A stretch of DNA of 64,000 nucleotides from Actinomycetes bacterium (GTDB lineage Bacteria > Actinomycetota > Acidimicrobiia > Acidimicrobiales > Bog-793): the NCBI GenBank assembly GCA_021798745.1, contig JAJZBW010000001.1, positions 1,188 to 65,187 on the forward strand, read 5' to 3'. Both the position numbers and the translations under genes were made by a program. Position 1 is the stretch's first letter. Every line of letters begins with the position of its first letter. Positions 1-29,043 of the stretch are shown in pieces. The notes under the pieces were generated by a model that saw only the letters and a program-made list of their open reading frames with translations, was not told where the DNA came from and made no database searches.

Positions 1-181
1 AGCGCTTCTCGCGATCGAGGAGCTCGAGCTCGCACAGTCGCAGCAGGTAGGTGAGGTGATCCGCGTTGTCCGTGGCCGCCTGGGCGGCCACCTTTTCGGC
101 CTCTTGACCCATGGTCGGGAGGCGGAGCGCCTTCAGATGGTGCCGCAGCAGCAGCATCTGCTTGGTCTCGAGTGCGTTCAT
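1..181 (-). CDS. istB: IS21-family helper ATPase IstB, N-terminal part only (continues off the left edge)
   Basis: A minus-strand ATG at 181..179 lies 3 nt after the istA stop. It translates to MNALETKQMLLLRHHLKALRLPTMGQEAEKVAAQAATDNADHLTYLLRLCELELLDREKR, a typical IstB N-terminus. Confidence 0.8.
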   Translation of the reverse strand, partial: MNALETKQMLLLRHHLKALRLPTMGQEAEKVAAQAATDNADHLTYLLRLCELELLDREKR

Positions 182-184
182 TGG

Positions 185-1687
185 TCATGCGCCTTTCTCG
201 GTGAGGGCCGCGTACGCAGTGAGGTCGGGTGCTTCGATGGCGACGGAGCGGAGGTGCGGGTGGCCGTCCAGGCTGAACAGTCCGACGGGACGCTCGGCCC
301 GATGCGCGAGGACGAGCCCGATCGCGTCCGCTCCCGTTGCGCCGATCGAAAGCGCGACCTCGATGGCCGCGGTGAGCTCGGCGAGCGTCGCATGCTCCAT
401 GAAGCGGAGCACCTTGATGAACTCGCGCGTGCCGGACGACCCGAGATCGGCCTCGAGCCGCCGGCGCAACAGCGCGAAGCAGCTCGGCAGCTCCCATCCC
501 TCGAGGGGCCGGGCGAAGTCGAATGCACCGGGCTTTCGTTCGAGAAGCGCCAGGTAGTGGCGCGGGTCGTAGGTGATGTGCTCACGGCCCCACCATCGGG
601 GGTGGGTGGCGACGAGCTCTGGTCCGAGAGAGATCGCGACCTCCTCGATCCCGCCGGCGACCGTCACCTCGTGGTGCGCGTAGGCGGTCGGGACCGAGTA
701 GTCGTTCTGGTCGAAGCGGACGAGGCTGAGCGAGCTCGCCCTCCGGTGCTCGATCCGACGCGGCTCGAAGACGGCACCGGGCAGGGCGAGCATCGCGGCC
801 CGGTCGTCTTCCAGGCGCTCAGCCTTGGTCTGTGCGTTGCCGCGGGTCCTGCGTGAGAGGTCGGCGAGGCACCGCTCGGCGAGGTGGACGTTCAGCTCGG
901 AGAACGACGAGAAGGACGGGACCGGGACGAGGAAGTTCCTCCGTCCATACCCGACGAGGTTCTCGACGTGGCCCTTCTCGTTTCCTCGCGCCACCCGGCA
1001 GAAGCGGTGGGTGAACAGGTAGTGGCTTTCCAGGCGGAGGAACTCCCGCGTGAGGTTCCGCTCTCTTCCGACGATCTTCGACACCGCGATCGAGGTGTTG
1101 TCATACGCGGTCTTTCTGGGGACGCCGCCGCAAAAGGAGAACGCGGCGACATGGCCGGCCTGGAAGGTCTCGGTGCACTCTCTCGGATAGGCCGAGACCG
1201 AGAACGCGTCGGAGTGCGGAAGCGTCATCACCGCGAGCGCGGCCTTCACCCGGTCACCTCCGATCTCGACGGTCGCCTCGCCGAAGTCGAACTGGGCCTC
1301 GCCGGGCGGCTGTGAGAGCGGGACGAAGACTTCGGCACTGTGGCGCCGGTACTCGGCGACGTAACGACGGACCGTCACCTCGCTGCCCACATAGCCGTGC
1401 TCGTCGCGCAGCCGGTCGAAGATCCGCCGAGCGGTGTGGCGCTGCTTCCTTGGTGTCGTGGGATCGGCGTCGCCGATGAGGATCTCGTCGATGTTCGCGA
1501 TGAACGGGCCGAGCTTGGGCTGGGTCTGGTGGGATCGGGCCGAATAGCCCGGCGGCTCGGGGTGGGCAAGCATCTTCTCGAGCGTCCACCAGCCGACGCC
1601 GTAATCCCTACAGATCGCCCGCTTCGAGACGCCCTCGACGAGCACCTTTCGCCGGATCTCGTTCCACTGCTCCATGTCGGTATGCAC
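185..1687 (-). CDS. istA: IS21-family transposase IstA
   Basis: This is a 500-aa ORF. It has an N-terminal HTH (VSKRAICRDYGVGWWTLEKML), a DDE-type core and the canonical istA-istB gene order. Confidence 0.9.
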   Translation of the reverse strand: MHTDMEQWNEIRRKVLVEGVSKRAICRDYGVGWWTLEKMLAHPEPPGYSARSHQTQPKLGPFIANIDEILIGDADPTTPRKQRHTARRIFDRLRDEHGYVGSEVTVRRYVAEYRRHSAEVFVPLSQPPGEAQFDFGEATVEIGGDRVKAALAVMTLPHSDAFSVSAYPRECTETFQAGHVAAFSFCGGVPRKTAYDNTSIAVSKIVGRERNLTREFLRLESHYLFTHRFCRVARGNEKGHVENLVGYGRRNFLVPVPSFSSFSELNVHLAERCLADLSRRTRGNAQTKAERLEDDRAAMLALPGAVFEPRRIEHRRASSLSLVRFDQNDYSVPTAYAHHEVTVAGGIEEVAISLGPELVATHPRWWGREHITYDPRHYLALLERKPGAFDFARPLEGWELPSCFALLRRRLEADLGSSGTREFIKVLRFMEHATLAELTAAIEVALSIGATGADAIGLVLAHRAERPVGLFSLDGHPHLRSVAIEAPDLTAYAALTEKGA

Positions 1688-1964: not shown

Positions 1965-2567
1965 TCATCCTCCTGACCTGCCGCTGTCGGGGAGTCCCGC
2001 GGGGATGAGTTGCTGGCAGATCTGCTGGGCGTGCATGAACTTCGCCGACTGGGTGTCAATGCTGGAGGGGACGTCGAAGTGGACAGTTCCGCCGGAGAAG
2101 GTGGGGTCAGGGAAGTTGGGGAAGCCGTGTGAGCGCAAGCAGGAAGCGGCCTTGAGGTAGTCCTGCTGGTCTTGGGCGGTGATCGTCTCGGCAGGCTGTC
2201 CACTCAGCCCGCCGGCGGGCATCAGGTTGTTGCAGGCATTCTGGGCCGCCTTCGCCTGCGAGCTGCTTACCGCCTGGAGCGCGTTGATCAAAGCTTGCTT
2301 CGGGATCCCTCCGCTGCCATCGGGGTCGGGGAAGTTCGGGACGCCGTGGGAGCGCATGCAGGAGGCGTAGGCCAAGAGTCCCGTTCCTTGCGTCCCGTGG
2401 CTACTGCCACCGGTCGAGCCGGTGGCTGCGCCAGGCGTCGGCGACCCACCACCGCAGGCAGCAAAAGTGACGCCAACCGCGAGGATTCCGGCCGCCATCA
2501 ACGCGGCGCGGCCCACCCGGGTCCGTCGTATCGGCCTGGGGTGGGTGGGGGCATCCAGATCGCCCAT
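1965..2567 (-). CDS. Secreted lipoprotein with an internally duplicated C-x-RSHG-x-P-x-FPDP module, function unknown (copy 1)
   Basis: It has a signal peptide and lipobox (RRTRVGRAALMAAGILAVGVTFAAC). Two repeats (SCMRSHGVPNFPDP and SCLRSHGFPNFPDP) are each followed by a second Cys. The start at M55 of the ORF is uncertain; an alternative ATG lies at 2615. Confidence 0.75.
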   Translation of the reverse strand: MGDLDAPTHPRPIRRTRVGRAALMAAGILAVGVTFAACGGGSPTPGAATGSTGGSSHGTQGTGLLAYASCMRSHGVPNFPDPDGSGGIPKQALINALQAVSSSQAKAAQNACNNLMPAGGLSGQPAETITAQDQQDYLKAASCLRSHGFPNFPDPTFSGGTVHFDVPSSIDTQSAKFMHAQQICQQLIPAGLPDSGRSGG

Positions 2568-2713: not shown

Positions 2714-4264
2714 ATGTCGTGGCAGCCAACCGGAGGTAGCGTCCGAAGCGTGTTGGAGCAGGTCGGACGCAGACTGTGGGGCATCTTCCGTCGGTTGATC
2801 GCGTCCTATGTCCTGGTCACGGTCGTGGTCGTGGTGCTGGTCGAGGCCTTCGTGCTCGGCTACCAGGTGCCCCGAATGGTGAGCGACACCCAGCTACACA
2901 CCCAGGTCCAGGAAACCGCGGCAAGCTACTGGGGCCAGCTCGTCCAGCGTTACCCCAGCGGCGTGCCGACCGGGGCCCTGCTCGGCGAGACCGGTCAGCG
3001 CCCGGAACCGGGCACCGCCCAGACGGCACCCGACGCCAGCACGCTCATCGTCCCGGCTGTCGCCGGCACGGTCAACAGCGACAAGGCGTTGACCGCGGTC
3101 GTAGCAATCGGGCAAGACGGCACGATCGTCGCTTCGTCGGCCCCGTCTCGCTACCCGCCCGGGCAACCTGCGGCAAGGTATCTGCCCGGCGGCGCCTCGG
3201 CGGCGATCCACGCCGGGCTCCTCAAGGGCGTTGGCGGCGGCATCGGATCGACTCCCTACGGCAGCGTCGCATGGACGCTGTACGGAGGGCGGAACCCTGT
3301 CAAATCTTCAGCCAGCGGCCCGGGCGGGACCTACCTCTATGTCCAGGCCCCTCACTCGACCGGGCTCGTCAACCCGATCCGAGCCTGGGACGAATTGGGC
3401 CAAGTTTCCGGCAACAGCCTGCTGTCCACCATCCTCTACGTTCTGCTGCTCGTCATCGTCCCCGTCGGCGTGCTGTTCGGGGTGCTCGCCTCTCGCCGGG
3501 TGGTGCGCCGGGTCCGCCGCTTGGAGCGAGCAACGGTGGCGGTCGCCGATGGCGACTACACCGTCGCCCTGCCTACCTCCGGTCGGGACGAGGTGGGGCG
3601 GCTCGAAGCGAACGTCGCCACGATGGCCCACCAGCTCAACTCCGCCCTCGCTGCCGAGCGCGAACGCGTCACTAGCGAAGCGCGTGCTGCCGAGCGGTCC
3701 CGGATCGCCCGGGAGATCCACGACGCCATCTCCCAACACCTCTTCGGCCTGCGCATGATCGCCTCGGGGATGCGCCGGGCCGACCCGCAGAACGAGCAGG
3801 TCCAGGCCATCGAACGCATCACCGAGGAGGCACTGCGCGACATGCAGATGCTGCTGCTCGAACTACGCCCCGCCGGCCTCGACGGTGCCGGCCTCGGCCC
3901 TGCCTTGGAGCAGATCTGCGCGGCTTACCACGACCGCCTCGGCGTGACCGTCGACGCCGACCTCGCCGACATCACCCTCCCCGAACCGGTCGAGGACGCC
4001 CTGTTGCGTGTCACGCAGGAGGCATGCACCAACGCCATCCGCCACGGCAACGCCCACCGGCTCGCCGTGTCCATGACCCGCCAGAACGGGCAGGTCGAGC
4101 TGGCCGTACGCGACAACGGGACTGGCTTCGACCCAGCCGCCTTGCACACCGGCTCCGGGCTGCGACACATCCACGACCGGGTCACCGAGCTCGGCGGCAC
4201 GGTGGACATCGACAGCGCACCGGGAGCGGGCGCCGCGGTCACCGTGCGCGTGCCAGCACCATGA
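2714..4264 (+). CDS. Sensor histidine kinase, NarL/HisKA_3 type, with HAMP
   Basis: It has two TM segments and a HAMP-like linker (DEVGRLEANVATMAHQLN). The H-box is REIHDAISQHLFGL and a HATPase_c C-terminus is present (DNGTGF...GSGLRHI). Confidence 0.9.
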   Translation: MSWQPTGGSVRSVLEQVGRRLWGIFRRLIASYVLVTVVVVVLVEAFVLGYQVPRMVSDTQLHTQVQETAASYWGQLVQRYPSGVPTGALLGETGQRPEPGTAQTAPDASTLIVPAVAGTVNSDKALTAVVAIGQDGTIVASSAPSRYPPGQPAARYLPGGASAAIHAGLLKGVGGGIGSTPYGSVAWTLYGGRNPVKSSASGPGGTYLYVQAPHSTGLVNPIRAWDELGQVSGNSLLSTILYVLLLVIVPVGVLFGVLASRRVVRRVRRLERATVAVADGDYTVALPTSGRDEVGRLEANVATMAHQLNSALAAERERVTSEARAAERSRIAREIHDAISQHLFGLRMIASGMRRADPQNEQVQAIERITEEALRDMQMLLLELRPAGLDGAGLGPALEQICAAYHDRLGVTVDADLADITLPEPVEDALLRVTQEACTNAIRHGNAHRLAVSMTRQNGQVELAVRDNGTGFDPAALHTGSGLRHIHDRVTELGGTVDIDSAPGAGAAVTVRVPAP

Positions 4265-4926
4265 CGATCCGGGTCGTGATCGCCGACGACCACCGCGTCG
4301 TCCGTGACGGACTGCACTACCTGCTCAGCCAAGAATCCGACGTCGAGGTAGTCGGGGAAGCCGAGGACGGCACGCAAACGCTGCGCGTCGCGGCCGCAAC
4401 CAACCCCGACGTGCTGCTGCTCGACCTCTACATGCCCAAGCTCGACGGGCACGGGGTCCTCGCCGCGCTACGCGACGCGGCGCACCAGCCGGCGGTCGTG
4501 GTGCTCACCTCGGCCACCGACGACGAGCACCTCGTCCGTGCCGTCCAGGCCGGCGCGACGTCCTACCTGGTCAAGACCGCTGCCGCCGAGGACGTCGTCG
4601 CTGCCGTGCGCGGCGCCGCCACCGGCGAAGCGAATCTCAGCCCCGATCTGGTGACTCGGCTCACCCGCGCCCTCCGCCGCCCACCGCCACCAAACCCGCT
4701 CCAACCCCTCTCGGCGCGCGAACGCGAAGTCCTCGACCTCATCGCCAGCGGTCACAGCAACCGCCAAATCGCCCGTGAGCTCATCATCAGCGAGCAAACC
4801 GTCAAGACCCACGTCAGCAGTATCCTCGCCAAACTCGATCTCCAAGACCGCGTCCAGGCTGCGATCTTCGCCCTCCGACATCGAGCAGACGAGGTCCAGT
4901 ACCGACCGCCGCACTCGTCGAAGTAA
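4261..4926 (+). CDS. Response regulator, NarL/LuxR family
   Basis: It begins MTIRVVIADDHRVVRDGL. A REC domain and a LuxR HTH (LSAREREVLDLIASGHSNRQIARELIISEQTVKTHV) are present. An ATGA overlap joins it to the kinase stop. Confidence 0.92.
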   Translation: MTIRVVIADDHRVVRDGLHYLLSQESDVEVVGEAEDGTQTLRVAAATNPDVLLLDLYMPKLDGHGVLAALRDAAHQPAVVVLTSATDDEHLVRAVQAGATSYLVKTAAAEDVVAAVRGAATGEANLSPDLVTRLTRALRRPPPPNPLQPLSAREREVLDLIASGHSNRQIARELIISEQTVKTHVSSILAKLDLQDRVQAAIFALRHRADEVQYRPPHSSK

Positions 4927-14320: not shown

Positions 14321-14610
14321 CCATCGCGGCGCCGGACGGGGAGTCCGCCCGGCGCATGGCGGACGATCTCCTCGCGGGCAGGCTCGCGGCGTCCGTCCAA
14401 CTGCTCCCGATCGAGAGCCACTACGTGTGGAAGGGCGAGGTCGTCCACCGGGAGGAGGTGCTCCTCCTCGTGACCACGCGGACGGCGCTCTACCCGGCCC
14501 TCGAGACCGCCGTCGCCGGGTCCCACGAGTACGAGGTCCCCGAGATCGTGCGCATCCCCGTCGCGGCGGGGCTCCCCGCGTACCTGGACTGGATATCGGC
14601 GGTCACCTGA
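14296..14610 (+). CDS. cutA: Divalent-cation tolerance protein CutA
   Basis: It begins MADEYSLVTIAAPDGESARRMADDLLAGRLAASVQLLPIESHYVWKGEV, which is typical of CutA1. A GAGGAG RBS lies upstream. Confidence 0.85.
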   Translation: MADEYSLVTIAAPDGESARRMADDLLAGRLAASVQLLPIESHYVWKGEVVHREEVLLLVTTRTALYPALETAVAGSHEYEVPEIVRIPVAAGLPAYLDWISAVT

Positions 14611-15307
14611 GGGGCGCCTGTGCCTGCGACTGGCCGAGCGGGCGGTCGTCCCGTGCGATCCGGTAGCCGACGTTCGCGACGGTCTCTACGACGGTCGGCT
14701 CCCCGAGCTTGCGCCTGAGGCGGCTGATCGTCACGAGGACCGCGTTCGTGAAGGGGTCGGCGTGCTCGTCCCAGACCTGCTCGAGCAGGTCCTCCGCGCT
14801 GAGCACCGACTCGCCCGCGTGGAGGAGCGCCTCGAGGACGGCGAACTCCTTGGCGGACAGCTCGACGACCCGGCCCGCGCGAGTGACGCGGTGGGCGACC
14901 GTGTCGAACTCGACGTCCGAGGAGCGGAGCACGCACGGGCGCACGCCGGGCTGCCGTCGCGCGAGCGCCCGGACGCGAAGGACGAGCTCGGGGAAGTGGA
15001 AGGGCTTCGCGAGGTAGTCGTCGGCCCCCGCACCGAGCCCGCTGACCCGGTCCTCGGGGGACCCCGAGGCGGTGAGCATGAGCACCATCGCGCGTCCCTC
15101 GGAACCGGTGATCGCCCGGCACAAGACGTCACCGTGGGTCCCCGGCAGGTCGCGGTCGAGCACGACGACGTCGTAGGAGCTGATCGCGAGCTTGCGTGCC
15201 GCCTCGTCACCGTCGCGCGCGACGTCGACGGCCATGGCCTGGTCCCGCAGGCCCTCCGCGACGACCTCGGCGAGCCGGGTCGAGTCCTCCACGACGAGCA
15301 CCCTCAC
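14603..15307 (-). CDS. Response regulator, OmpR/PhoB family
   Basis: It begins VRVLVVEDSTRLAEVV. A REC domain and a winged-helix output (LSAKEFAVLEALL...VANVGYRI) are present. The GTG start overlaps the kinase stop (GTGA). Confidence 0.9.
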   Translation of the reverse strand: MRVLVVEDSTRLAEVVAEGLRDQAMAVDVARDGDEAARKLAISSYDVVVLDRDLPGTHGDVLCRAITGSEGRAMVLMLTASGSPEDRVSGLGAGADDYLAKPFHFPELVLRVRALARRQPGVRPCVLRSSDVEFDTVAHRVTRAGRVVELSAKEFAVLEALLHAGESVLSAEDLLEQVWDEHADPFTNAVLVTISRLRRKLGEPTVVETVANVGYRIARDDRPLGQSQAQAPLR

Positions 15308-16629
15308 GGCCGCGCCGCCCCTCCGGTGCCCTCCGGGAGAGCGCGCGCGGGGCGCGCCGCGAGCGGGAGGTCGACCTCGACTCGCAGCCCGCCCTCCGCG
15401 ATCGCCGTGAGAGCGAGCGACCCGCCGTGCGCGTCGGCGACGGCCGCGACGATCGAGAGCCCGAGCCCGAACCCCCCGTCCGACCCCGTGCGCTCCGTCC
15501 CCGCCCTCCGGAACGGCTGGACGAGGTCGACGACGCCGTTCCCGTCGAGCACCTGGCCGGAGTTCTCGACCACGAGCACGGCGGTGGAGCCGCGGGTGCC
15601 CGTGCGCACGCGCACGAATCCGCCGGGCTCGTTGTGCCGAACCGCGTTGTCGAGGAGGTTCTCGACCAGCTGGGTGAGAAGCGTCGCGTTGCCCGAGACC
15701 CAGGCGTCCGCGCAACCGGGCGCGTCCACGGCGAGCCCGAGCCTCGTGACCGGGCGCTCACGACGCGCGATCGCGGACGCCACGAGCTGGTCGAGCGCGA
15801 GGGGGGTGTCGAGGCCGGCGGGCCCCCTCTCGGCCCGTGCGAGCACGAGGAGCCCCTCGAGCAGGCGGTCGACCCCGTCGAGCTCGACGCGGAACCGCTC
15901 GGCGAGGGTCGCGAGAGGAGGGGGGACCGGTCCGGGCTTCGCGACCGCGACGTCGAGAGCCGCCCGCATCGTCGCAAGCGGGGTGCGGAGCTCGTGGGAG
16001 GCGTTCGCGACGAAGAGGCGCTGGGCCTGGAACGACCTCTCGAGCCGTTCGAGCAGCCCGTCGAAGGTGTCGCCGAGCTGCTTCAGCTCGTCGTCGGGAC
16101 CGGCGAGCGCGAGGCGCTCGTGGAGGTTGCTCGCGGAGATGTCGCGCACGCTGTTCGTGATCGCGCGCAGTGGTCGCAGCACCCGCCCCGCCGAGACCCA
16201 CCCGAGCGCGGCTGCGAGGACGACCGTCAGCGCGAGCGCGATCCCCGAGTAGAGGAGCAGCTGGTGGAGGTCCGAGCTCTGTTGGCCTGCGGCAACGATC
16301 CGGAGCTGCTCGGTGACCTTCCGGAGGACCTCGACGGGCGGGACACGCGGCAGTCCTGCCCGAGCCGGCCCGCCGAGCGCCGGGCTGACGCCTCCCGGCG
16401 GCACGAGCCCGAGCGCGACCGCCCCGGCCGCGGTGATGTCGATGATCCGCGCCGGCACCCTTGCGGAGACGGCGACACGCGTGCTCGTCGCACGCCCCCA
16501 CAGCAGGGCCGTCAGGACGACCAGGGCGGCTACCGACCCGAGGAACAGCGCCCCGTAGGAGGTCGCGAGCCGAGCGCGGACCGTCCGTCGGGAGCCTTCG
16601 CGCCCGTGTGCCGCTCCCTTGCGTCCCAT
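15304..16629 (-). CDS. Sensor histidine kinase (HAMP-HisKA-HATPase_c)
   Basis: The H-box is FVANASHELRTPLATM. The N, G1 and G2 regions are present (LLDNAVRHN, GFGLGLSIV). It has two TM segments and HAMP. Confidence 0.9.
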   Translation of the reverse strand: MGRKGAAHGREGSRRTVRARLATSYGALFLGSVAALVVLTALLWGRATSTRVAVSARVPARIIDITAAGAVALGLVPPGGVSPALGGPARAGLPRVPPVEVLRKVTEQLRIVAAGQQSSDLHQLLLYSGIALALTVVLAAALGWVSAGRVLRPLRAITNSVRDISASNLHERLALAGPDDELKQLGDTFDGLLERLERSFQAQRLFVANASHELRTPLATMRAALDVAVAKPGPVPPPLATLAERFRVELDGVDRLLEGLLVLARAERGPAGLDTPLALDQLVASAIARRERPVTRLGLAVDAPGCADAWVSGNATLLTQLVENLLDNAVRHNEPGGFVRVRTGTRGSTAVLVVENSGQVLDGNGVVDLVQPFRRAGTERTGSDGGFGLGLSIVAAVADAHGGSLALTAIAEGGLRVEVDLPLAARPARALPEGTGGAARP

Positions 16630-16981: not shown

Positions 16982-18190
16982 TCAGATCGACCACAGGGCT
17001 TCCGTCGGCGAGAGGCGCGCGGCCCGGAGCGCCGGGAGGAGCCCCGCGACCGCGCCGATCACGAGCGCCGCTCCGAGCCCTCCGCCCCAGGCGAGAGGCG
17101 GGACGACGATCGTCCATCTCTTCGTCGAGGCGTACACGGCCGTCGAGACCGTGCCGAGGACCACCCCCGTCGCGCCGCCGAGGAGGGAGAGCAGGACCGC
17201 CTCCGCGAGGAACTGGGTCCGGATGTGGCTCTTCGTCGCGCCGAGCGCGCGCCGCAGCCCGATCTCCGAGCGCCGTTCGAGCACGGAGATCACCATGATG
17301 TTCGCGACACCGACGGCCCCGACGAGCAGAGCGACGCCTCCGAGCCCGAGGAACAGCCCGTTGAGAGCGGCCTGCGCGTCGGCTTCCGCGACGAGGGCGG
17401 ACGAGGGCTGGGACACGTTGACCTGGTTCGGAGCTTCCGGGTTCGCGGTCGCCCCGAGGACCGCGTCGACCGCGTCGACCTCGCTCGTCGCGGCGCGGAC
17501 GTAGATCTCGGACGGGTGCCCGTCGAACCCGAGGTAGGTCTCCGCGGCGGGGAACCCGACGAGCACGGAGCTGTCGATCTCCGGGGTGAGGGGCGCGGGG
17601 TTCAGGATCCCCGTTACGTAGAACCACATGTTCCCGAGCCAGATCCTCTCTCCCGGGAAGACCCGGTCTATTCCGAGCCGCTGCGCCGCGGCAGCGCCGA
17701 GGACCGCGACGGGCTCGGTCGCCGTCGCGGGGTTCAGGTAGCGCCCGGAGGCGAGGGACGTCCCGACGTCCGACGGGAGGGCGAGGCTCGAGGCGGCCAC
17801 GCTGAGGGCGTTCGTGTCGATGCTCGGCACGAGCGGGCTCCTGTAGACGTTCACGTTGCCCACCGCACCCGTGTACTGGACCTCGGTCACGGGCCCGATC
17901 CGGCCGATCATCCCGGGCGCGGCGACCGGGAGTTCCGCGGGCTGACCGAACAGGCTCTCGCCGTTCGTGACCGTGAGGAGGTTCGTCCCGAGCCGGTTGA
18001 TCTCGGCGAGAAGGCCCGCCTCCGACGAGGAGGAGAGACCGAGGACGGCGACGATCGCCGCGACCCCGATCGCGATCCCGAGAGCGGAGAGCCCGGCCCG
18101 GAGCTTGCGGGTCCGGAGCCCGACGACCGCGACCCTCCAGAGGTCGCCCGGAGCGAGGGCGCCCGCGGAGGGCGACGCCTTCCCCGTCAC
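16982..18190 (-). CDS. ABC transporter permease, FtsX/MacB type
   Basis: It has an N-terminal TM, a large extracytoplasmic domain and a C-terminal FtsX region (ERRSEIGLRRALGATKSHI). A GTGA overlap joins it to the ATPase. Confidence 0.9.
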   Translation of the reverse strand: MTGKASPSAGALAPGDLWRVAVVGLRTRKLRAGLSALGIAIGVAAIVAVLGLSSSSEAGLLAEINRLGTNLLTVTNGESLFGQPAELPVAAPGMIGRIGPVTEVQYTGAVGNVNVYRSPLVPSIDTNALSVAASSLALPSDVGTSLASGRYLNPATATEPVAVLGAAAAQRLGIDRVFPGERIWLGNMWFYVTGILNPAPLTPEIDSSVLVGFPAAETYLGFDGHPSEIYVRAATSEVDAVDAVLGATANPEAPNQVNVSQPSSALVAEADAQAALNGLFLGLGGVALLVGAVGVANIMVISVLERRSEIGLRRALGATKSHIRTQFLAEAVLLSLLGGATGVVLGTVSTAVYASTKRWTIVVPPLAWGGGLGAALVIGAVAGLLPALRAARLSPTEALWSI

Positions 18191-18978
18191 CCGGTCACCG
18201 CGTCCCCGCGGTCCCCGTCCGCTCCCCGGGGCGGGGCGGGCGCCCCGCGGACAGGACCTGCCGCGCCGGCGGGCGGACCTCCGGCCGAGGACCTGTCCTC
18301 GACGACCCTGCCGTCCAGGACCTGCACCTGGCGCGGCAGCCGGTCGGCGATGGCCCGCTCGTGGGTGATCACGACGATCGTCGCCCCGCCGTCGTGGAGC
18401 TCCTCGAGGAGCGAGAGGATCGCCTGGCTGTTCGCGCTGTCGAGGTTCCCGGTCGGCTCGTCGGCGAGCACGATCGCGGGCCTCCCGACGAGGGCGCGGG
18501 CGATGGCGACGCGCTGCCGCTCCCCGCCCGACAGCTGGGTCGGCCGCGCGGAGCCACGGTGGCCGAGCCCGACGCGCGTGAGCGCCGCGGCCGCGGCGTC
18601 CCGACGCTCCGCGAGCGCGACGCCCGCGTAGAGGAGCCCGTCGGCGACGTTGTCGAGGGCTCGCTCGTGCTCCGCGAGGAAGAACTGCTGGAACACGAAC
18701 CCGATCCGGGTCGCCCGGAGCGCCGAGAGCTCACGGTCCGACATGTCTGCGACGTCGAGCCCCGTCACGCGCACGGAGCCGGTCGTCGGCCTGTCGAGCG
18801 TCCCCATGAGGTGGAGGAGCGTCGTCTTCCCCGATCCCGACGGGCCCACTATCGCGACGAGCTCGCCCTCGCCGACGACGAAGCTCACGCCCCGGAGCGC
18901 CTCGACGGGCGGCTCGCTCGGATAGGTCTTGGTCACGGACTGGACCTCGAGGACGGGCGTCGCCACGGTCGCGCTCAC
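18187..18978 (-). CDS. ABC transporter ATP-binding protein (MacB/LolD-like)
   Basis: Walker A is GPSGSGKTT, the signature is LSGGERQRVAIARAL and Walker B is VLADEPT. A GTGA overlap joins it to the adaptor stop. Confidence 0.92.
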   Translation of the reverse strand: MSATVATPVLEVQSVTKTYPSEPPVEALRGVSFVVGEGELVAIVGPSGSGKTTLLHLMGTLDRPTTGSVRVTGLDVADMSDRELSALRATRIGFVFQQFFLAEHERALDNVADGLLYAGVALAERRDAAAAALTRVGLGHRGSARPTQLSGGERQRVAIARALVGRPAIVLADEPTGNLDSANSQAILSLLEELHDGGATIVVITHERAIADRLPRQVQVLDGRVVEDRSSAGGPPAGAAGPVRGAPAPPRGADGDRGDAVTG

Positions 18979-20966
18979 GTGCCTGGCGTCACGACGCGGT
19001 CCCCCGCGGCGATCCCCGAGCCGGAGACCTGCACGAGCCCGTCCGCGTCGTCGAACAGCCCGAGAGAGACCGCGGCGAGATGATGCACACCATGTGATAT
19101 GAGCTCGAGAGCGTACCCTCCGTCGGCGAGCGCGAGGAGCGCGTCGACGGGGACCACCAGGACGTCCGAGACCGTCGCGGTCGTGATCGAGACGTTCACG
19201 GGCGCCTGGTCGAGGCCCGCGGTCGCGCGCAGGTGCGTCGGGGCGACGAGCACCGTGATCGTCGGCGAGGAGCTCCCGCCCCCCGCGGAGCTGCTCGGCA
19301 CCGTCGCGACCGTCCCGACCGAGGTCACGGTCCCGGGCGTCGTCGAGTTGTCCGGGAGCGTGATCGTCACGGGGTCGCCGACCTTCACGTCGGACTGGAG
19401 GGACGCGTCGAGCCCGATCGTCACGACGAGCGACGTCGACGTCGCCGTCAGGATCGCGAGGCCGGGGGTGGCAGCGACCCCGTCGGCGGCCGACACGGAG
19501 GCGACGGCGATCGGCCCCGGCTCGACGACCACGTCTCCGAGCGCGACGATCCCGGTCGGCGGCGCGCCGGTGGACCGCTGCCACGCCTCGACCGCCGCCT
19601 TCGTCGAGGGGCCGAAGTGGCCGTTCGGGACCAGTCCCCGTCCGAACCCGAGAGCGACGAGGTTCCTCTGGAGCTGCGCGACGTCGGCGCCGTCTCCGAC
19701 TCCCTCGGAGAGAGCGCGGTACGGGGTGACGGACCCGTAGAGGAGCGGAACCTCTCGGCCGTCGAGCCCGTACACGGCGCCGCCGCGGCGGACGACCTGG
19801 CCGGCGGTCGGCAGGGCGGTCACGCGCGCCCCGGGGTTCACCGCCTGCTCGGCGTCCGCCGCGAACGTGCTCTGCGCCACGCGGAGGGCGCTCTCGTCCC
19901 CTGCGAGGGTCTGCGCGTCCTGCGCGACCGCCGCCCCCGACCCCGCACGGTCCGCGGCGACCGAGTCGCTCGCGACCGCCAGCGCCTCGGTGTCCGCTGC
20001 GACGACGACCGCCTCCGCCGTGCACGACGACGTCGGGATCTGGAACGTCTGGATCGCACCCGTCGCGGTCCCTCCCGCGTTCGTCGCGACGAGGGTGAAG
20101 TCGTACGTCGTTCCCGGGACGAGACCGGTCACGGTCGCGCCGACGGGCACCGATGTCGCGCCCGATCCCGCGCTCTCGACGGTCGTGCTGCCTCCGTACG
20201 CCGCGCTCACGCCGTACTCGAACCTGTAGCTTGTGTCCGACCCGTTCGGATCGACGCTGCCCGAGAGGGAGACGCTCTCCGACGCGCTCACCGCCGCGGA
20301 CCCCGTCGTGACCGTCGGACGCAGCGGGGTCGGCACGGTGCTCGCCCCCGGGACGACCCTCCGTACGTGCGCCGCGGCGCCCGCGGCGCCGGATCCCGCG
20401 TTCCCGGCGCCTGCCCCGGTCCCGGTCCCGGTCCCCGTCCCCGTCCCCGTCCCCGTCCCCGTGGCCGTCGTGACCGTCGCGGCGGAGGAGGACGGGCAGC
20501 CGAGCCGCTCGTCCGTCGCGAGCTGCGTGTTGGCCTGCGAGAGAGCCGTCGTGTCGGCGCTCTCGGCCGCGAGCGCTCCGAGAATCGTCGCGGCGTCCTG
20601 GGCTCGTCCTGTCGCCCGCGCGCGCCCGAGGGCGGCCGTGTCGGCAGCGACCTTCGCGCGGTCGGCCTGGAGCGCCGTCCGGTCCGCGGCCATCGTGGCG
20701 GCGGAGGTGCCCGTCGGGAGCGACACCGAGTAGCTCCCCTCGTATCCGAGGGTCGCGCTCACCTCCGTCTCGGAGGAGAGGTTCTGTCGCGTGACGGTCG
20801 CCGTCGACGTCGGGTACGCGTTGTCGAGGGCGCTCCCCGGTGCTCCCGTCGAGGCGAACGGGTCGGTCGCGGCGAGCGCGGCCCCCGCTGCGGCGACGAC
20901 GGCCACGCCCGCCGCGGCGAGGCGTCGACGGCGCGTGCCGAGCAGGCGCGCCGCGTGCGGGCTCAC
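18975..20966 (-). CDS. Membrane-anchored periplasmic-adaptor-like protein (HlyD/MacA-like) with a peptidoglycan-binding domain and an inserted FN3-like domain
   Basis: It starts VSPHAARLLGTRRRRLAAAGVAVVAAAG (TM anchor). Ala-rich coiled-coil arms flank a (TG)n linker and an FN3-like segment (VDPNGSDTSYRFEYGVSAAYGG...GTTYDF). The PG_binding_1 motif is GADVAQLQRNLVALGF...GPSTKAAVEAWQ. A C-terminal beta-barrel region follows. Confidence 0.8.
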   Translation of the reverse strand: MSPHAARLLGTRRRRLAAAGVAVVAAAGAALAATDPFASTGAPGSALDNAYPTSTATVTRQNLSSETEVSATLGYEGSYSVSLPTGTSAATMAADRTALQADRAKVAADTAALGRARATGRAQDAATILGALAAESADTTALSQANTQLATDERLGCPSSSAATVTTATGTGTGTGTGTGTGTGAGAGNAGSGAAGAAAHVRRVVPGASTVPTPLRPTVTTGSAAVSASESVSLSGSVDPNGSDTSYRFEYGVSAAYGGSTTVESAGSGATSVPVGATVTGLVPGTTYDFTLVATNAGGTATGAIQTFQIPTSSCTAEAVVVAADTEALAVASDSVAADRAGSGAAVAQDAQTLAGDESALRVAQSTFAADAEQAVNPGARVTALPTAGQVVRRGGAVYGLDGREVPLLYGSVTPYRALSEGVGDGADVAQLQRNLVALGFGRGLVPNGHFGPSTKAAVEAWQRSTGAPPTGIVALGDVVVEPGPIAVASVSAADGVAATPGLAILTATSTSLVVTIGLDASLQSDVKVGDPVTITLPDNSTTPGTVTSVGTVATVPSSSAGGGSSSPTITVLVAPTHLRATAGLDQAPVNVSITTATVSDVLVVPVDALLALADGGYALELISHGVHHLAAVSLGLFDDADGLVQVSGSGIAAGDRVVTPGT
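20412..20464. repeat. Hexanucleotide tandem repeats (CCGGTC/CCCGTC units) encoding TGTGTGTGTGTGTGAGAG within the adaptor gene
   Basis: Read directly from the sequence. About 8 in-frame 6-nt units are present. Confidence 0.8.
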
Positions 20967-21610
20967 CCCCCGCCCTCGGCCTGCTTCGAGTAGGGGAGAC
21001 CCGCGGGGATGAGCGCCTCGCAGATCTGGCGCGCCCGGAGGAACGACGTCGAGCTCGGGCTCATCCCCGTCGGGATCGGGAAGCTCACCTGGCCGCCGTT
21101 GAAGACCGGGTCGGGGAAGCCGACGATCCCGTGGGACCGCATGCACGCCGCCGCCTTCAAGTAGTCCGCCTGCTGCGCCGGCGTGATGGTCGCGGCGTGC
21201 GCGCCGCCGCCCGCAGGGAGGTACTTGCGGCACTCGCCCTGCGCGGACACGAAGGACTTCGAGCCGGGGTCGACGCCGCTGCCCGGAGCGATCTTGATCC
21301 CGACGCCCTTCCCGTTGCTCGAGATCGTGGGCTGCGGGAAGCCGGGCACCCCGTGCGAGCGCATGCAGGCGGCGAACCTGAGCACGTCTGAGTAGACGGC
21401 GCCCGGGCTCCCCGCGGGCGCGGGAGCCCCGCTCGGTGCGGGAGCGGTCGTCGAGGTCGTCGTGGAGCCGAGGCTCGCGACGCCGGCGGACGGGCTGCCC
21501 CCGCACGCGGCCGCGAAGGCGACGACGCCCGTCAGGGCCGCCCCGACCGCGAGACGCCGCGCCGCGCTCCGGGGAGGCCGCTCCTTTCCTGCATGCTCAG
21601 TGACCGTCAC
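20963..21610 (-). CDS. Secreted lipoprotein with duplicated C-x-RSHG-x-x-FP-x-P module (copy 2; paralog of 1965..2567)
   Basis: It has a lipobox (LTGVVAFAAAC) and repeats ACMRSHGVPGFPQP and ACMRSHGIVGFPDP, each followed by a second Cys. The GTG start at 21610 is tentative. The stop overlaps the adaptor start (GTGA). Confidence 0.75.
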   Translation of the reverse strand: MTVTEHAGKERPPRSAARRLAVGAALTGVVAFAAACGGSPSAGVASLGSTTTSTTAPAPSGAPAPAGSPGAVYSDVLRFAACMRSHGVPGFPQPTISSNGKGVGIKIAPGSGVDPGSKSFVSAQGECRKYLPAGGGAHAATITPAQQADYLKAAACMRSHGIVGFPDPVFNGGQVSFPIPTGMSPSSTSFLRARQICEALIPAGLPYSKQAEGGG

Positions 21611-21941
21611 CGTCGTACCGTCCCCACCATCCGACCGCGGCCGGAGAGCTCGCACTGGTCGCCAACTAGATACGGAGTATCCTACTCGAGCGCCGCCTCC
21701 CGCGCCGACGCCGTCCCTTCGCGTGACAGAAGTACCCGGACGGGGGTAACAGGGGCCTAACAGGCGCGCCCGGGTGGACCGCGCCGGAGGTGCGTGCACG
21801 GGGCCGTCCGGCCGCCAGCGGCCGGGCCACCCGCCCGTGACGCCGCGCACCGCGACCGGGTCCCTACACTTCACGGCGTCTGGGGCGCCGGGCCCCGGAT
21901 CCGCCCGGGGAGGCGGGCGCGCTCGGGAGGTCGTCGGGAGA

Positions 21942-23063
21942 ATGGGACAGCGCGGCCGGCTCCCGATGCCCGAGCGCCGCCGGCCTCCGGTCGCCGTGCT
22001 CGCCCGGCGCTGGGCGGTGCTCGTCGCAGTCGTCGTCGTGGTGGTCGTCGGAGTCCGGGTCGCGACCGGCGGCCGTGCGCCGGCGCGCGCCACGACCCGT
22101 GCGGCGGGGGCCGGCACGTCCGCCCCGCGTCCGCGCCCTGCGGCCGGGCACCTCGTGGTCTCTCTCGCACCGTGGCGGCTCGGCGCACCGGTGTCCCGTT
22201 CGGCGGTCGTCCCGTACGGGTCGGACTTCCTCGTCCTCGGCGGGCTCGCGACGGGCGACACCTCGACGGCCGACGTGTGGAAGGTGGACCCGGCGCGCGG
22301 GACCGCGACGCTCGTCGGGTCGCTCCCCTCCGCCGTGCACGACGCGGCCGGTGGGTTCCTCTCCGGGCGCGCCGTCGTGTTCGGGGGGGGATCCTTCTCG
22401 ACGGTCGCGGCGGTGCAGGCGTGGTCGCCGAGCTCGGGGACCGCCTCGGTCCCGGGCGCGCTCCCGGCGCCACGCTCGGACCTGTCGGCCGCGGTGCTCG
22501 GCGGGACGGCGTACGTGCTCGGCGGGTACGACGGGACGTCGCTCTCCCCGACGATCCTCGCGACCTCCGACGGGGTCCACTTCCGCACCGTGGGTCGTCT
22601 CGTGCAGCCCGTCCGATACGCCGCGGTCGCCGCGGTCGGCGGATCGGTGCTCGTCGTGGGAGGGGACCTCGGGGCCGGCACGGCGAGCGCCGCGAGCAGG
22701 CAGACCAGCGAGATCCAGCGCTTCGACCCGCGCACGGGCAGGACCACCGTCGTCGGCCACCTGCCCGTCGTCCTCGGGGACGCCTTCGCGGTCGCGCTCG
22801 GGGGCGAGCTGTACGTGCTCGGCGGGCGGACCGGGAACGTGCTGTCCCGTGCGATGTGGCGCGTCGACCCGGCGACCGGAGCGGTGTCTCCCGCGGGGAC
22901 GCTCACGTACCCGAGGAGCGACGCGGGGGTCGTCGTCGTCGCAGGTCGCGCCTACGTCGTCGGCGGCGAGACGACCGGGCCCCTCGCCCCGCTCGACTCG
23001 GTGCTCGAGGTCCGGCTCGCGACCGGACGGCCGCGGACCGCGACGCGTGGGACCGCCGCCTGA
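21942..23063 (+). CDS. Membrane-anchored Kelch-repeat protein
   Basis: The start MGQRGRLPMPERRR is followed by a TM (WAVLVAVVVVVVVG). Repeated Kelch-like blades follow (LVLGG, AVVFGGG, AYVLGGYDG, VLVVGG, LYVLGGR, AYVVGG). Confidence 0.8.
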   Translation: MGQRGRLPMPERRRPPVAVLARRWAVLVAVVVVVVVGVRVATGGRAPARATTRAAGAGTSAPRPRPAAGHLVVSLAPWRLGAPVSRSAVVPYGSDFLVLGGLATGDTSTADVWKVDPARGTATLVGSLPSAVHDAAGGFLSGRAVVFGGGSFSTVAAVQAWSPSSGTASVPGALPAPRSDLSAAVLGGTAYVLGGYDGTSLSPTILATSDGVHFRTVGRLVQPVRYAAVAAVGGSVLVVGGDLGAGTASAASRQTSEIQRFDPRTGRTTVVGHLPVVLGDAFAVALGGELYVLGGRTGNVLSRAMWRVDPATGAVSPAGTLTYPRSDAGVVVVAGRAYVVGGETTGPLAPLDSVLEVRLATGRPRTATRGTAA

Positions 23064-23946: not shown

Positions 23947-25798
<1,852 letters not shown>

Positions 25799-25807
<9 letters not shown>

Positions 25808-25819
25808 ACCAGTCCCGAG
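25799..25819. promoter_or_regulatory. Candidate DosR-box-like site TTCGGCTAGACCAGTCCCGAG, upstream of the USP gene
   Basis: The right half, AGTCCCGA, matches the published DosR consensus TTSGGGACTWWAGTCCCSAA well. The left half matches only in TTCGG and carries one extra nt. The site lies 74-94 nt upstream of the USP start. Confidence 0.3.
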
Positions 25820-25892
25820 GGGCGAACAGGTCCGAAAGGCCCTACTGCCCTCCTCGGGGCGATGCGAACATCACGCGCGGAGGTGGTCCGCC

Positions 25893-26354
25893 GTGGACGT
25901 GGCAGCGAGACAGCGAGAGGGCAAGGGGCGCGCCGCGGGACCGGTCGTCGTCGGGGTCGACGGTTCGAAGGCGTCCGACGCGGCGCTCGAGTGGGCGGCG
26001 GAGGAGGCGCGCATGCGCGGTGCGACCCTCCGGGTCGTGCACTCGTGGTCGCTCCCGACCTGGAGCTACTCCGCGTACCTCCCTCCCGTCGCGTTCGAGG
26101 AGGTGGAGCCCGCGGCCCGAGAGGACCTCGACCGCCAGGTCGCCCAGGTGCTCGGTCCGAGCCCGGACGTGCGCGTCGAGAAGGAGCTCCGCGAAGGACC
26201 GGCCGCCGAGCAGATCCTCGACGCGGCGGCGGACGCGGCACTCGTCGTCGTCGGCTCCCGTGGGCGCGGGGGATTCGCGGGCCTCCTGCTCGGATCGGTC
26301 AGCGCCCAGGTCGTGCAGCACGCGCACTGTCCCGTGACGATCGTCCGGACCTGA
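25893..26354 (+). CDS. Universal stress protein (UspA family)
   Basis: The motifs VVVGVDGSKASDAALEWAAEEA and the ATP-binding region VVGSRGRGGFAGLLLGSVSAQVVQHAHCPV are present. Confidence 0.9.
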   Translation: MDVAARQREGKGRAAGPVVVGVDGSKASDAALEWAAEEARMRGATLRVVHSWSLPTWSYSAYLPPVAFEEVEPAAREDLDRQVAQVLGPSPDVRVEKELREGPAAEQILDAAADAALVVVGSRGRGGFAGLLLGSVSAQVVQHAHCPVTIVRT

Positions 26355-26880: not shown

Positions 26881-27978
26881 ATGGACCAAAACGACCTGGA
26901 CACCGTTCTCGGCAAGCTCGTGAAGGCCGAGGGGTCCGACCTTCACGTCAAGGCCGGCTCTCCGCCGCGCATGCGCGTGAACGGGATCCTTCGCCGCATG
27001 ACCGACCAGCGCGTCATCGACGGGGGCGACCTCGAGCTCCTCGCACGGGCGATCATGCACGAGCGCGTGTGGCAGCGGTTCGAGACGACCTCCGAGGCGG
27101 ACTTCGCGTACTCGGTGTCCCAGCTCGGCCGGTTCCGAGTGAACGCGTTCCGCCAGCGCGGGACCGTGTCCATGGTCTTCCGGCACGTCCGCCCGGGGAC
27201 GCAGATGCTCGCGGAGCTCGGGCTCCCCGACGCCGTGAGACGGCTCGCCGAGGAGCCGCGGGGGATCGTCCTCGTCACCGGTCCGACCGGGTGCGGCAAG
27301 ACGACGACGCTCGCCGCGATGATCGACCACCTGAACAAGACGCGCGAGTGCCACATCGTGACCATCGAGGACCCGATCGAGGTGCTCCACCGCGACAACC
27401 TCGCCTCGATAAGCCAGCGGGAGGTCGGGTTCGACACGGACAGCTTCAACGTCGCTCTGCGGTCCGCGCTCCGGGAGGACCCGGACGTGATCCTCGTCGG
27501 CGAGATGCGGGACCCGGAGACCGTGGAGACGGCGCTCACCGCGGCGGAGACGGGGCACCTCGTGCTCTCCACGCTCCACACGGGGGACTCGGTCGAGACG
27601 GTGAACCGGATCATCGACTTCTTCCCCCCGAGCCAGCAGCGACAGGCGCGCCTGTCGCTCGCGGGCGCCCTCCGGGGCACGATCTGCCAGCGTCTCGTGA
27701 CGACCGCGGACGGATCGGGTCGGGTGCCCGCGCTCGAGATCATGGTCGTGAACGGGCGGATCCAGCAGTGCATCGTCGAGCCCCAGCACACGAGCAACAT
27801 CGCCGAGATCGTCGCCGAGGGCGACTACTACGGGATGCAGACGTTCGCGCAGTCCCTCATCGGGCTGCTCCGCGAGGGGACGATCGACGTCGAGGCCGCG
27901 ATCGCGTCGGCTCCGAACTCTCACGACCTGCGCATCATGCTCCAGCGCCAGGGGATGGCCCAGTCCGTCCTCGGCTGA
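26881..27978 (+). CDS. PilT/PilU-family type IV pilus ATPase (PilU-like: lacks the AIRNLIRE motif)
   Basis: Walker A is GPTGCGKTT. The Asp/His boxes are present (DPDVILVGEMRD, TGHLVLSTLHT). At the position of the PilT signature it reads GRIQQCIVE. Confidence 0.88.
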   Translation: MDQNDLDTVLGKLVKAEGSDLHVKAGSPPRMRVNGILRRMTDQRVIDGGDLELLARAIMHERVWQRFETTSEADFAYSVSQLGRFRVNAFRQRGTVSMVFRHVRPGTQMLAELGLPDAVRRLAEEPRGIVLVTGPTGCGKTTTLAAMIDHLNKTRECHIVTIEDPIEVLHRDNLASISQREVGFDTDSFNVALRSALREDPDVILVGEMRDPETVETALTAAETGHLVLSTLHTGDSVETVNRIIDFFPPSQQRQARLSLAGALRGTICQRLVTTADGSGRVPALEIMVVNGRIQQCIVEPQHTSNIAEIVAEGDYYGMQTFAQSLIGLLREGTIDVEAAIASAPNSHDLRIMLQRQGMAQSVLG

Positions 27979-28036
27979 CGCCCGGCGGCTCCCGCCGTCT
28001 CGCCGCGGCGACGCGCCCGGCCTCGCGCGCTCGCGC

Positions 28037-28990: not shown

Positions 28991-29043
28991 CGGTCGCCCG
29001 CGCCGAGCCCCGGGGGGTCGCGCCGGGACGCGGAGCGCTGACG

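Follow-up and report, generated by a model that had tools for sequence, protein, structure and literature searches.

We analysed a stretch of 64,000 nucleotides (referred to as the window) from an actinobacterial metagenome-assembled genome (MAG) of the order Acidimicrobiales (assembly GCA_021798745.1, contig JAJZBW010000001.1, positions 1,188 to 65,187). The window carries two paralogous genes for small lipoproteins, copy A (1965..2567, minus strand) and copy B (20963..21610, minus strand). They belong to a family whose members are all named 'hypothetical protein' in the source databases. Across genomes, operons for a peptidoglycan-binding adaptor and a MacB-type ATP-binding cassette (ABC) transporter that lie beside a two-component system have a gene of this family in the near-obligatory first position. 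Copy B represents the canonical, operon-heading form, and the paralogous copy A adjoins a NarL-type system.

Sequence and predicted build of the lipoproteins

Copy A encodes 200 residues from an ATG start and comprises a lipobox (FAAC), a Gly/Ser/Thr/Pro tether and two helical modules. In the NCBI annotation of the same MAG (M0Z33_06455) this gene starts 16 codons earlier, at position 2615, and encodes 216 residues. Copy B (215 residues, GTG start) is the first gene of the pump operon described below and is identical to the NCBI call M0Z33_06540. An alignment of A with B resulted in 43% identity (BLASTP, E 4e-39). Both proteins are internally duplicated, with 45% identity between the halves in A (E 7e-15) as well as in B (E 1e-15). 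The repeated unit is a module of about 60 residues, present twice per protein, with the pattern C-x-R-x-H-G-x3-F-P-D-P followed by a second Cys. The motif reads ASCMRSHGVPNFPDP and ASCLRSHGFPNFPDP in A, and AACMRSHGVPGFPQP and AACMRSHGIVGFPDP in B. A six-frame search of the window with a hidden Markov model (HMM) found no third copy of the family.

The N-termini of both proteins show a positively charged segment, a hydrophobic stretch and a lipobox Cys (RRTRVGRAALMAAGILAVGVTFAAC-GGG in A, RRLAVGAALTGVVAFAAAC-GGS in B). Since position -3 is occupied by Ala or Phe instead of Leu, they fit the permissive and not the strict lipobox pattern. As judged by this signal pattern, A and B are predicted to be lipidated bacterial lipoproteins, i.e. 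substrates of Lgt and Lsp. The lipobox is followed by a flexible tether of 25–40 Gly/Ser/Thr/Pro residues, and both features together place the protein almost certainly outside the cytoplasm.

An AlphaFold2 model (24 homologues) is confident for residues 59–196 (pLDDT ~90), whereas residues 1–58 are disordered. Module 1 consists of three helices (residues 58–73, 90–98 and 102–115). Module 2 is built up by a helix (131–146), a short hairpin (156–163) and a second helix (175–185). In each module the first Cys is located near the end of helix 1, ahead of the H-G-x3-F-P-D-P loop, and the second Cys lies in the last helix. Because both cysteines sit in helices of the same module, one disulfide per module is plausible. 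According to the model, each module is probably stapled in this way, with two disulfides in all.

The four cysteines are near-invariant. All of them are present in 336 of 402 aligned relatives, and 57 of the remaining sequences have a gap only at the first Cys, which we attribute to truncated gene calls. In the same alignment the Arg of the motif is conserved to 96–98%, the His to 90–94% (Asn being next in frequency), the Gly to ~98% and the aromatic position (Phe, Tyr or Trp) to ~97%. The P-D-P residues are conserved to ~85–100% depending on position, with a minimum at the Asp of module 1 (85%, or 94% if Glu is included). The lipobox Cys is found in 286 of the 289 relatives that cover this region. 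The motif His is exchanged for Asn, Ser or Arg in 6–10% of the sequences. A homologue from Nonomuraea gerenzanensis (L082:8770-9390) has Asn at this position in both modules, CVRENGVPDFKDP and CMRDNGVPSFPDP. The family can thus do without the His, which makes a universal role in metal binding less likely.

A profile search of 1.84 billion representatives retrieved 8,389 clusters (50% identity) at E ≤ 1e-3 and 4,067 at E ≤ 1e-10, most of them with ~200 residues. The 80 best genome loci belong to members of the Acidimicrobiales, of the Solirubrobacterales and further Thermoleophilia, of the Gaiellaceae and of several Actinomycetes, all of them Actinomycetota. Family and architecture also occur in Streptomyces chartreusis and Nonomuraea gerenzanensis, for which the plasmid records are unannotated and the context is taken from our own gene calls.

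Searches of Pfam-A with the lipoproteins yielded no family even at E ≤ 10, and the precomputed Pfam assignments list none for any of the 120 best homologues. NCBIfam gave only noise, the highest score being 17 bits (cut-off 100). No relative was found in the PDB, either by sequence or by a Foldseek fold search. Two candidate assignments were rejected. A degenerate PG_binding_1 module received a probability of 0.2% when 300 modules were compared by hhalign with 50 PG_binding_1 segments of the neighbouring adaptors. A class I cytochrome c does not fit either: the motif is C-x-R-x-H, its fourth position is not Cys (no CXXCH), and no cytochrome was among the Foldseek matches. A weak NCBIfam match to c551 (E 0.024) covers the signal peptide and the tether. 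Full-text literature searches retrieved analogous systems only and no published description of the family or of a module composed of the lipoprotein, a peptidoglycan-binding adaptor, FtsX and a two-component system. We regard the protein family and its candidate fold as new within a known kind of system, namely an ABC exporter module under two-component control that includes an accessory lipoprotein.

The initial annotation of this DNA had already described two paralogous lipoproteins with a duplicated module of about 60 residues and four conserved cysteines, of a family to which it could assign no function. All of this agrees with the open reading frames, alignments and database searches above, by which no known enzymatic domain is assigned. 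Its motif for the start of the module is also correct as written. The proposed end, Q-x-x-C-x-x-L, was confirmed for three modules (QNACNNL, QQICQQL and RQICEAL), whereas in module 1 of B (QGECRKYL) the Leu is shifted one residue later.

Genomic context of the family

Copy B is followed on the minus strand by a gene for a peptidoglycan-binding adaptor-like protein (18975..20966, 663 residues from a GTG start). The stop codon of B and the start codon of the adaptor gene overlap as GTGA (20963-20966). The adaptor itself matches only PG_binding_1 and, weakly, fn3. Among its 43 alignable homologues PG_binding_1 is found in 37, HlyD_3 in 17 and HlyD_D23 in 2. The frequencies of PG_binding_1 and HlyD_3 identify these homologues as membrane-fusion-type adaptors with a peptidoglycan-binding insert.

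The next gene (18187..18978, minus strand) overlaps the adaptor stop by 4 nt and encodes an ABC ATPase of the MacB/LolD/FtsE type (ABC_tran, E 7e-32). It classifies as a type VII ATPase; its best NCBIfam models are LolD, MacB and FtsE, all under the equivalog cut-offs. The permease (16982..18190, minus strand) matches MacB_PCD (E 4e-17) and FtsX (E 2e-22) and likewise classifies as MacB-type (type VII). Its matches to LolC/E are sub-threshold and far below the cut-offs, and the MacB model scores higher. A sensor histidine kinase with HAMP, HisKA and HATPase_c domains (15304..16629, minus strand) is encoded 352 bp downstream of the permease gene, followed by an OmpR-type response regulator (Response_reg and Trans_reg_C; 14603..15307, minus strand). 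The complete order, all on the minus strand, is PG_binding_1 protein, ABC ATPase, MacB_PCD/FtsX permease, HisKA kinase and OmpR-type regulator. A protein with a Kelch-repeat β-propeller (21942..23063, plus strand, 373 residues) is encoded divergently from B.

To analyse this arrangement across genomes, we used the 80 best-scoring genome loci of the family, in places several per genome and without phylogenetic correction. Genes were called with a GC3-based caller that had first been checked on the window; it truncates some N-termini and missed a family gene in four loci. Neighbouring genes were classified by HMMs built from the kinase, regulator, ATPase, permease and adaptor of the window, with a Pfam cross-check on subsets.

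The dominant map of these loci consists of one or more lipoprotein genes followed by the genes for the peptidoglycan-binding adaptor, the ABC ATPase and the FtsX permease, with an OmpR-type regulator and then a kinase encoded divergently. The lipoprotein gene is thus typically divergent from the two-component operon and co-directional with the adaptor and ABC genes. In a variant frequent in Solirubrobacterales, the first lipoprotein gene lies between a divergent regulator/kinase pair and a co-directional one, and a second lipoprotein gene follows ahead of the adaptor, ATPase and permease genes. Tandem arrays of 2–4 lipoprotein genes occur. Subfamilies correlate with position: one is always located between two regulator genes, another between kinase and adaptor.

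Two-component genes account for 47% of the genes within 1 kb of a family member, compared with ~3% at 5–10 kb in the same loci. Going upstream from each of 150 family genes, the first gene outside the family is a divergent regulator in 68 cases and a kinase in 28; going downstream, it is an adaptor in 54. When the family genes are grouped into 111 runs, a two-component gene is directly adjacent to 75 runs and within three genes of 87. Two-component and transporter genes are both found within three genes of 49 runs, a transporter alone near 15, and neither near 9.

In order to avoid circularity, we compiled a second sample centred on the adaptor: 80 metagenome loci, of which 52 were informative (with 700 bp or more of sequence ahead of the adaptor gene), scanned in six frames with the HMM. 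A co-directional family gene was present within 1.5 kb upstream in 50 of the 52. Of the other two, one carries its copies at another place in the locus and the second has no copy. Stop/start overlaps of the A/GTGA kind, open into the adaptor frame, were observed at 26 of 93 lipoprotein-adaptor junctions elsewhere.

The kinases that adjoin the lipoprotein genes have two transmembrane (TM) segments, a loop with a median of ~72 residues and no recognised sensor domain. Loop lengths are bimodal, with ~50–95 residues in OmpR-type (HisKA) and ~190–250 in NarL-type (HisKA_3) systems. These kinases are not of the intramembrane-sensing type, and their build is neutral on the need for an accessory sensor.

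Further genes are inserted into related loci. In 19 of them an additional gene separates those of the ABC ATPase and the FtsX permease (e.g. L002:14109-15377, L023:6830-8599, L044:12751-14079 and L053:16253-17524). In the five loci scanned its product has 340–590 residues and bacterial Ig-like (Big_1) domains; the operon of the window is without this gene, and its adaptor has the weak fn3-like insert instead. Directly 3' of the permease gene and co-directional with it, three Pfam-scanned loci (L034:8347-9507, L041:15372-16538 and L045:15430-16596) encode a SpoIIE/PP2C-type phosphatase of ~388 residues. Five more loci of the Acidimicrobiaceae type have a gene of equal size at this position. The phosphatase gene could indicate that the module has a second signalling output.

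Copy A is divergent from a sensor histidine kinase gene (2714..4264, plus strand; the start may be 2750). The kinase has two TM segments, an extracytoplasmic loop of ~190 residues and HAMP, HisKA_3 and HATPase_c domains. The start of a NarL/LuxR-type response regulator gene (4261..4926, plus strand; Response_reg and GerE) overlaps the kinase stop. The same arrangement, in which A-type lipoprotein and HisKA_3 kinase genes are divergent and a LuxR-type regulator gene follows that of the kinase, is repeated in L011, L012, L028 and Nonomuraea (L082). In L012 and L082 the adaptor, ABC and FtsX genes come after the A-type lipoprotein. In the window, an IS21-family transposase gene (185..1687, minus strand; rve and Mu-transpos_C_2) lies directly downstream of A. 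The two longest public contigs with A end in the IS21 element, so that downstream partner genes of A, if any, are interrupted or hidden. The element is probably what interrupts or hides the operon of A. A short open reading frame at 2..181, beside the transposase gene, could be the start of a helper gene, in which case the element spans 2..1687 on the minus strand.

For both loci the domain matches support the gene order given in the initial annotation, with A divergent from a NarL-type kinase/regulator pair and B heading an ABC operon upstream of an OmpR-type pair. It had also suggested an association of the family with two-component and FtsX-ABC genes, and the co-occurrence counts show this to be far beyond chance (47% versus ~3%; 50 of 52).

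A number of family genes are linked to exporters of another kind. Three orthologues of A (~60% identity) are located directly behind an ABC-2-related permease gene (PF26999). In two of the three a GntR gene precedes the permease gene, in two there is an ABC ATPase gene, in one the genes overlap by 4 nt, and at least one has no kinase gene next to it. Several of the 80 genome loci show a co-directional row of an ABC ATPase, a protein of ~350 residues (with ABC2_membrane_2 in L001) and the lipoprotein. Moreover, full-length natural fusions of an ABC-2 permease with the lipoprotein form at least 19 clusters (90% identity) of 523–581 residues and 53–92% mutual identity. In these proteins the former signal peptide is placed to serve as an additional TM helix. 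In L029, a duplicated FtsX permease gene precedes the lipoprotein gene. The PF26999 permease is fused elsewhere to a subtilase (Peptidase_S8) or a secretory lipase (PF03583), as observed in P0331, P0377, P0382, P0401 (~850 residues) and P0404 (879 residues), and seems to be a platform for various extracytoplasmic domains.

Candidate regulatory DNA

In 22 of 72 divergent intergenic regions between regulator and lipoprotein genes, two copies of GTTWCR occur at a spacing of exactly 11 bp, 25–90 bp from the regulator start, for example CGGTTTCAGCACGGTTTCG and GGTTACAGCGCGGTTACA. None of the shuffled controls contained two copies. The box, GTTWCR-N5-GTTWCR, was found in L009, L032, L033, L035, L038, L042, L044, L049, L066, L071, L073, L074, L077, L116, L133, L136, L142 and L148. 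Three versions of it were observed, namely GGTTTCA/GGTTTCG, GTGTTTCA/CTGTTTCG and GGTTACA/GGTTACA. Different paralogous two-component systems of one locus seem to have different versions; L033, L038 and L073, for example, contain two different boxes each.

A direct repeat with the same 11-bp period, CCTGTTA-N4-CCTGTTA (21747-21764, minus strand), is located ~137 nt upstream of the start of B, in the intergenic region shared with the Kelch-repeat gene. A 7-nt repeat containing GTTW at an 11-bp offset is present in only 0.27% of random 331-bp windows of this sequence. Sites of OmpR/PhoB-type regulators are usually tandem direct repeats one helical turn apart. The CCTGTTA repeat resembles the GTTWCR box, and we infer that both are candidate sites of the OmpR-type regulators. 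At locus A, the intergenic region between the lipoprotein and kinase genes contains two 15-nt palindromes, CCCTC-N5-GAGGG, 23 bp apart (2677-2691 and 2700-2714). They are a plausible candidate operator of the NarL/LuxR-type regulator. Scans for sigma-70 promoters and intrinsic terminators around both loci yielded no sites, as expected for a high-GC actinobacterium.

The window contains two further groups of genes. A third signalling cluster (23947..26354) comprises a kinase with GAF and HisKA_3 domains (23947..25512, minus strand) and a universal stress protein (25893..26354, plus strand). A candidate receiver/LuxR-type regulator was recognised by eye on the plus strand within an open reading frame at 24704..25807. 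The cluster is a candidate relative, in its layout, of the mycobacterial DevS/DosT-DevR-Usp dormancy loci. The second group (26881..31581) resembles type IV pilus or type II secretion genes and encodes a PilT-like ATPase (26881..27978), an A24 prepilin peptidase (28037..28801, minus strand) and a PilB/MshE-like ATPase with MshEN domains (29044..31581).

Proposed role of the lipoprotein and alternatives

Based on the genomic context we propose that the lipoprotein, tethered to the membrane and controlled by the regulator, acts outside the cytoplasm as an effector or partner of ABC exporters. We put the probability of this role at roughly 45%. It is favoured because of the coupling to the adaptor gene, the upstream position in 50 of 52 adaptor loci, the GntR/ABC-2 contexts and the permease fusions. 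A single role as effector or partner also covers all four settings in which the gene is found: as the first gene of the pump operon, on its own next to a two-component system, downstream of a GntR/ABC-2 exporter and fused to a permease. The lipoprotein would then probably supply an extracellular part that had been missing from a widespread module of envelope stress or detoxification. In the proposed sequence of events, the phosphorylated regulator would bind the direct repeats and induce the lipoprotein-adaptor-ABC operon. On the outer leaflet of the membrane, the lipoprotein would bind either an envelope-active compound or the extracytoplasmic domain of the exporter. Together with the exporter it would shield the membrane or pass the substrate on. 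Feedback onto the kinase would be possible as a secondary effect.

A similar logic is known from the LanI lipoproteins (NisI in the case of nisin), where a small, lipid-anchored extracellular protein is likewise encoded with an ABC exporter (LanFEG, NisFEG) and an OmpR-type two-component system (LanRK, NisRK). NisI is built of two similar domains, which is reminiscent of the two modules found here. LanI proteins are reported to act with LanFEG under the control of LanRK and can act with or without the transporter (PMC4828448, PMC5786555). There are also clear differences. LanI is β-rich, whereas the present family is helical with two Cys pairs; there is no Pfam match, and no LanI structure was among the Foldseek matches in the PDB. 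The pump is MacB-type with a peptidoglycan-binding HlyD adaptor instead of LanFEG, and no lantibiotic genes were seen nearby.

Several observations weigh against a role as exporter partner. In 38 of the 111 runs there are two-component genes but no transporter gene within three genes. Within a locus, the number of lipoprotein copies correlates with that of two-component pairs (rho 0.40, p 2e-4) and not with that of the adaptors (rho 0.17, not significant). The CxRxHG...FPDP motif is conserved too highly for a surface that binds diverse antimicrobials, and may instead be structural or bind a conserved partner. For the natural fusion P0197, AlphaFold2 gave a pTM of only 0.31, from which no docking of the lipoprotein part on the permease can be deduced. 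Finally, the analogy to LanI, which shares neither fold nor sequence similarity with the family, is one of logic only.

A serious rival, if on balance an unlikely one, is that the lipoprotein serves as a dedicated co-sensor of the kinase. In that case it would bind the extracytoplasmic loop, activate or inhibit the kinase with or without a ligand and form a three-component system. The initial annotation had favoured such a co-sensor or ligand-presenting partner. The adjacency of two-component genes to 75 of the 111 runs (87 within three genes) is in line with this idea, and the 38 runs without a nearby transporter gene are explained by it at least as well. The correlation of copy number with two-component pairs points in the same direction, as does the subfamily that is always found between two two-component systems. 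The Solirubrobacterales variant can be read as one lipoprotein copy for each system, and the nearby kinases, with two TM segments and a modest loop, have no sensor domain that we could recognise.

Precedents exist as well. LpqB-MtrB, QseG-QseE and HbpS-SenS likewise combine an exported or lipid-anchored protein with a two-component system encoded beside it, and hbpS is divergent from its two-component operon, as is typical here (PMC5487470, PMC12691602 and PMC4991794). None of LpqB, QseG, HbpS, CpxP and ZraP is homologous to the lipoprotein family according to Pfam, NCBIfam, PDB and Foldseek searches. Divergent orientation relative to the two-component operon is also seen for cpxP and zraP (CpxP-CpxA, ZraP-ZraS); CpxP contains an internal repeat and, besides belonging to the regulon, acts as a feedback element.

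The association with two-component systems stands, but a co-sensor is not the best fit. The lipoprotein gene is usually divergent from the two-component operon and, unlike lpqB and qseG, usually not co-transcribed with the kinase gene; it is coupled translationally to the adaptor gene instead. Close orthologues of A are found in GntR-ABC-ABC-2 operons, in at least one case with no kinase gene alongside, and the fusions with ABC-2 permeases are conserved. In addition, the family adjoins both OmpR-type (HisKA) and NarL-type (HisKA_3) kinases, and their loops differ so much in length (~50–95 versus ~190–250 residues) that a single conserved kinase-binding interface is difficult to reconcile with them.

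The exporter itself can be compared with the type VII ABC systems MacAB-TolC, LolCDE-LolA, FtsEX-EnvC and YbbAP-TesA. The B operon resembles them in its MacB_PCD/FtsX permease and its MacB/LolD/FtsE-like ATPase, and here a specific extracytoplasmic protein is nearly always co-encoded; MacAB additionally has an HlyD-family adaptor, and HlyD domains occur in homologues of the adaptor in the window. Every characterised type VII machine is reported to have a dedicated periplasmic partner (PMC5985334, PMC12646458). Here, in contrast, the partner is a new lipoprotein family, the adaptor has a PG_binding_1 insert and often Ig-like or fn3 domains, and the hosts are without TolC. Since the matches to the named equivalog models are far below the cut-offs, the B operon is not an orthologue of any of the four Escherichia coli systems. 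One may speculate, with little confidence, that the lipoprotein, a peptidoglycan-anchored HlyD adaptor and the MacB-type transporter form an unrecognised, wall-spanning type VII machine of monoderm Actinomycetota. The lipoprotein would be mechanically driven, similar to EnvC, LolA or TesA, and either be moved or released by ATP-driven mechanotransmission or act as a flux sensor that relays to the kinase. The double CxRxHG/FPDP module would then be a new fold that recognises a conserved molecule of the envelope.

Alternatively, the lipoprotein could be the cargo of the MacB-type machine, which would extract it from the membrane in the manner of LolCDE and hand it via the peptidoglycan-anchored adaptor to the wall or the cell surface. 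The precedent is the reported handling of lipoproteins by LolCDE (PMC5985334, PMC12646458). The near-obligatory first position of the gene would suit a cargo, arrays of 2–4 copies could represent several cargoes, and permease and ATPase match LolC/E and LolD, besides MacB, at a sub-threshold level. We nevertheless consider this very unlikely. The Lol-model matches lie far under the cut-offs, with MacB the better model for the permease, and the copies behind ABC-2 exporters and those beside pump-less two-component systems are left unexplained. The permease fusions also speak against a cargo, because a fused domain cannot be released.

The conserved residues also suggest a metal or redox module, in which the Cys pair and the His would bind copper or zinc or form a thiol-disulfide switch. 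Such a module would report or buffer stress for the kinase and the exporter, comparable to NosL with NosDFY. NosL, too, is a small lipoprotein, and its partner on the external side of the membrane is an ABC-2-type complex (PMC8457098); some of the adjacent or fused permeases carry a NosY-type COG name ('multi-copper enzyme maturation permease' in some sources). There is, however, no similarity to NosL, no nos genes are located nearby, and the COG label is generic. Each module has two of the four invariant Cys; the first of them is followed, four residues on, by a conserved His, often with an adjoining Met. The His is replaced in 6–10% of the sequences, by Asn in both Nonomuraea modules, and the Met is not conserved (Leu in module 2 of A). 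The sub-threshold match of the OmpR-type kinase to the CztS/SilS/CopS model (157 bits against a cut-off of 293) is generic, as the VanS and BaeS models score alike. Foldseek yielded no fold match to known metallochaperones. For an even number of cysteines in an exported actinobacterial protein, structural disulfides are the simplest explanation. Taken together, a metal or redox function is highly improbable.

That the gene merely hitch-hikes in a syntenic block without a functional link is hardly credible: all sampled genomes are Actinomycetota, so that some of the gene order is inherited rather than selected, but the association spans Acidimicrobiia, Thermoleophilia and Actinomycetes despite many rearrangements around it, the independent adaptor-centred sample agrees, and stop/start overlaps and gene fusions are observed.

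For Gram-positive bacteria, modules of a two-component system and an ABC exporter are one of the main ways to detect cell-envelope antibiotics and antimicrobial peptides and to resist them, and how MacB-type pumps act without an outer membrane is poorly understood. The lipoprotein as a regulator-controlled exporter partner would add to such modules an unannotated family with thousands of members, which is a near-constant component across Acidimicrobiia, Thermoleophilia and Actinomycetes including Streptomyces and Nonomuraea. The family merits a database model of its own, which would end the 'hypothetical' labels. For experimental work, a defined unit of six genes and a candidate regulator box, GTTWCR-N5-GTTWCR, are now at hand, and the question can be posed whether the lipoprotein is a partner of the pump, a shield or a co-sensor.

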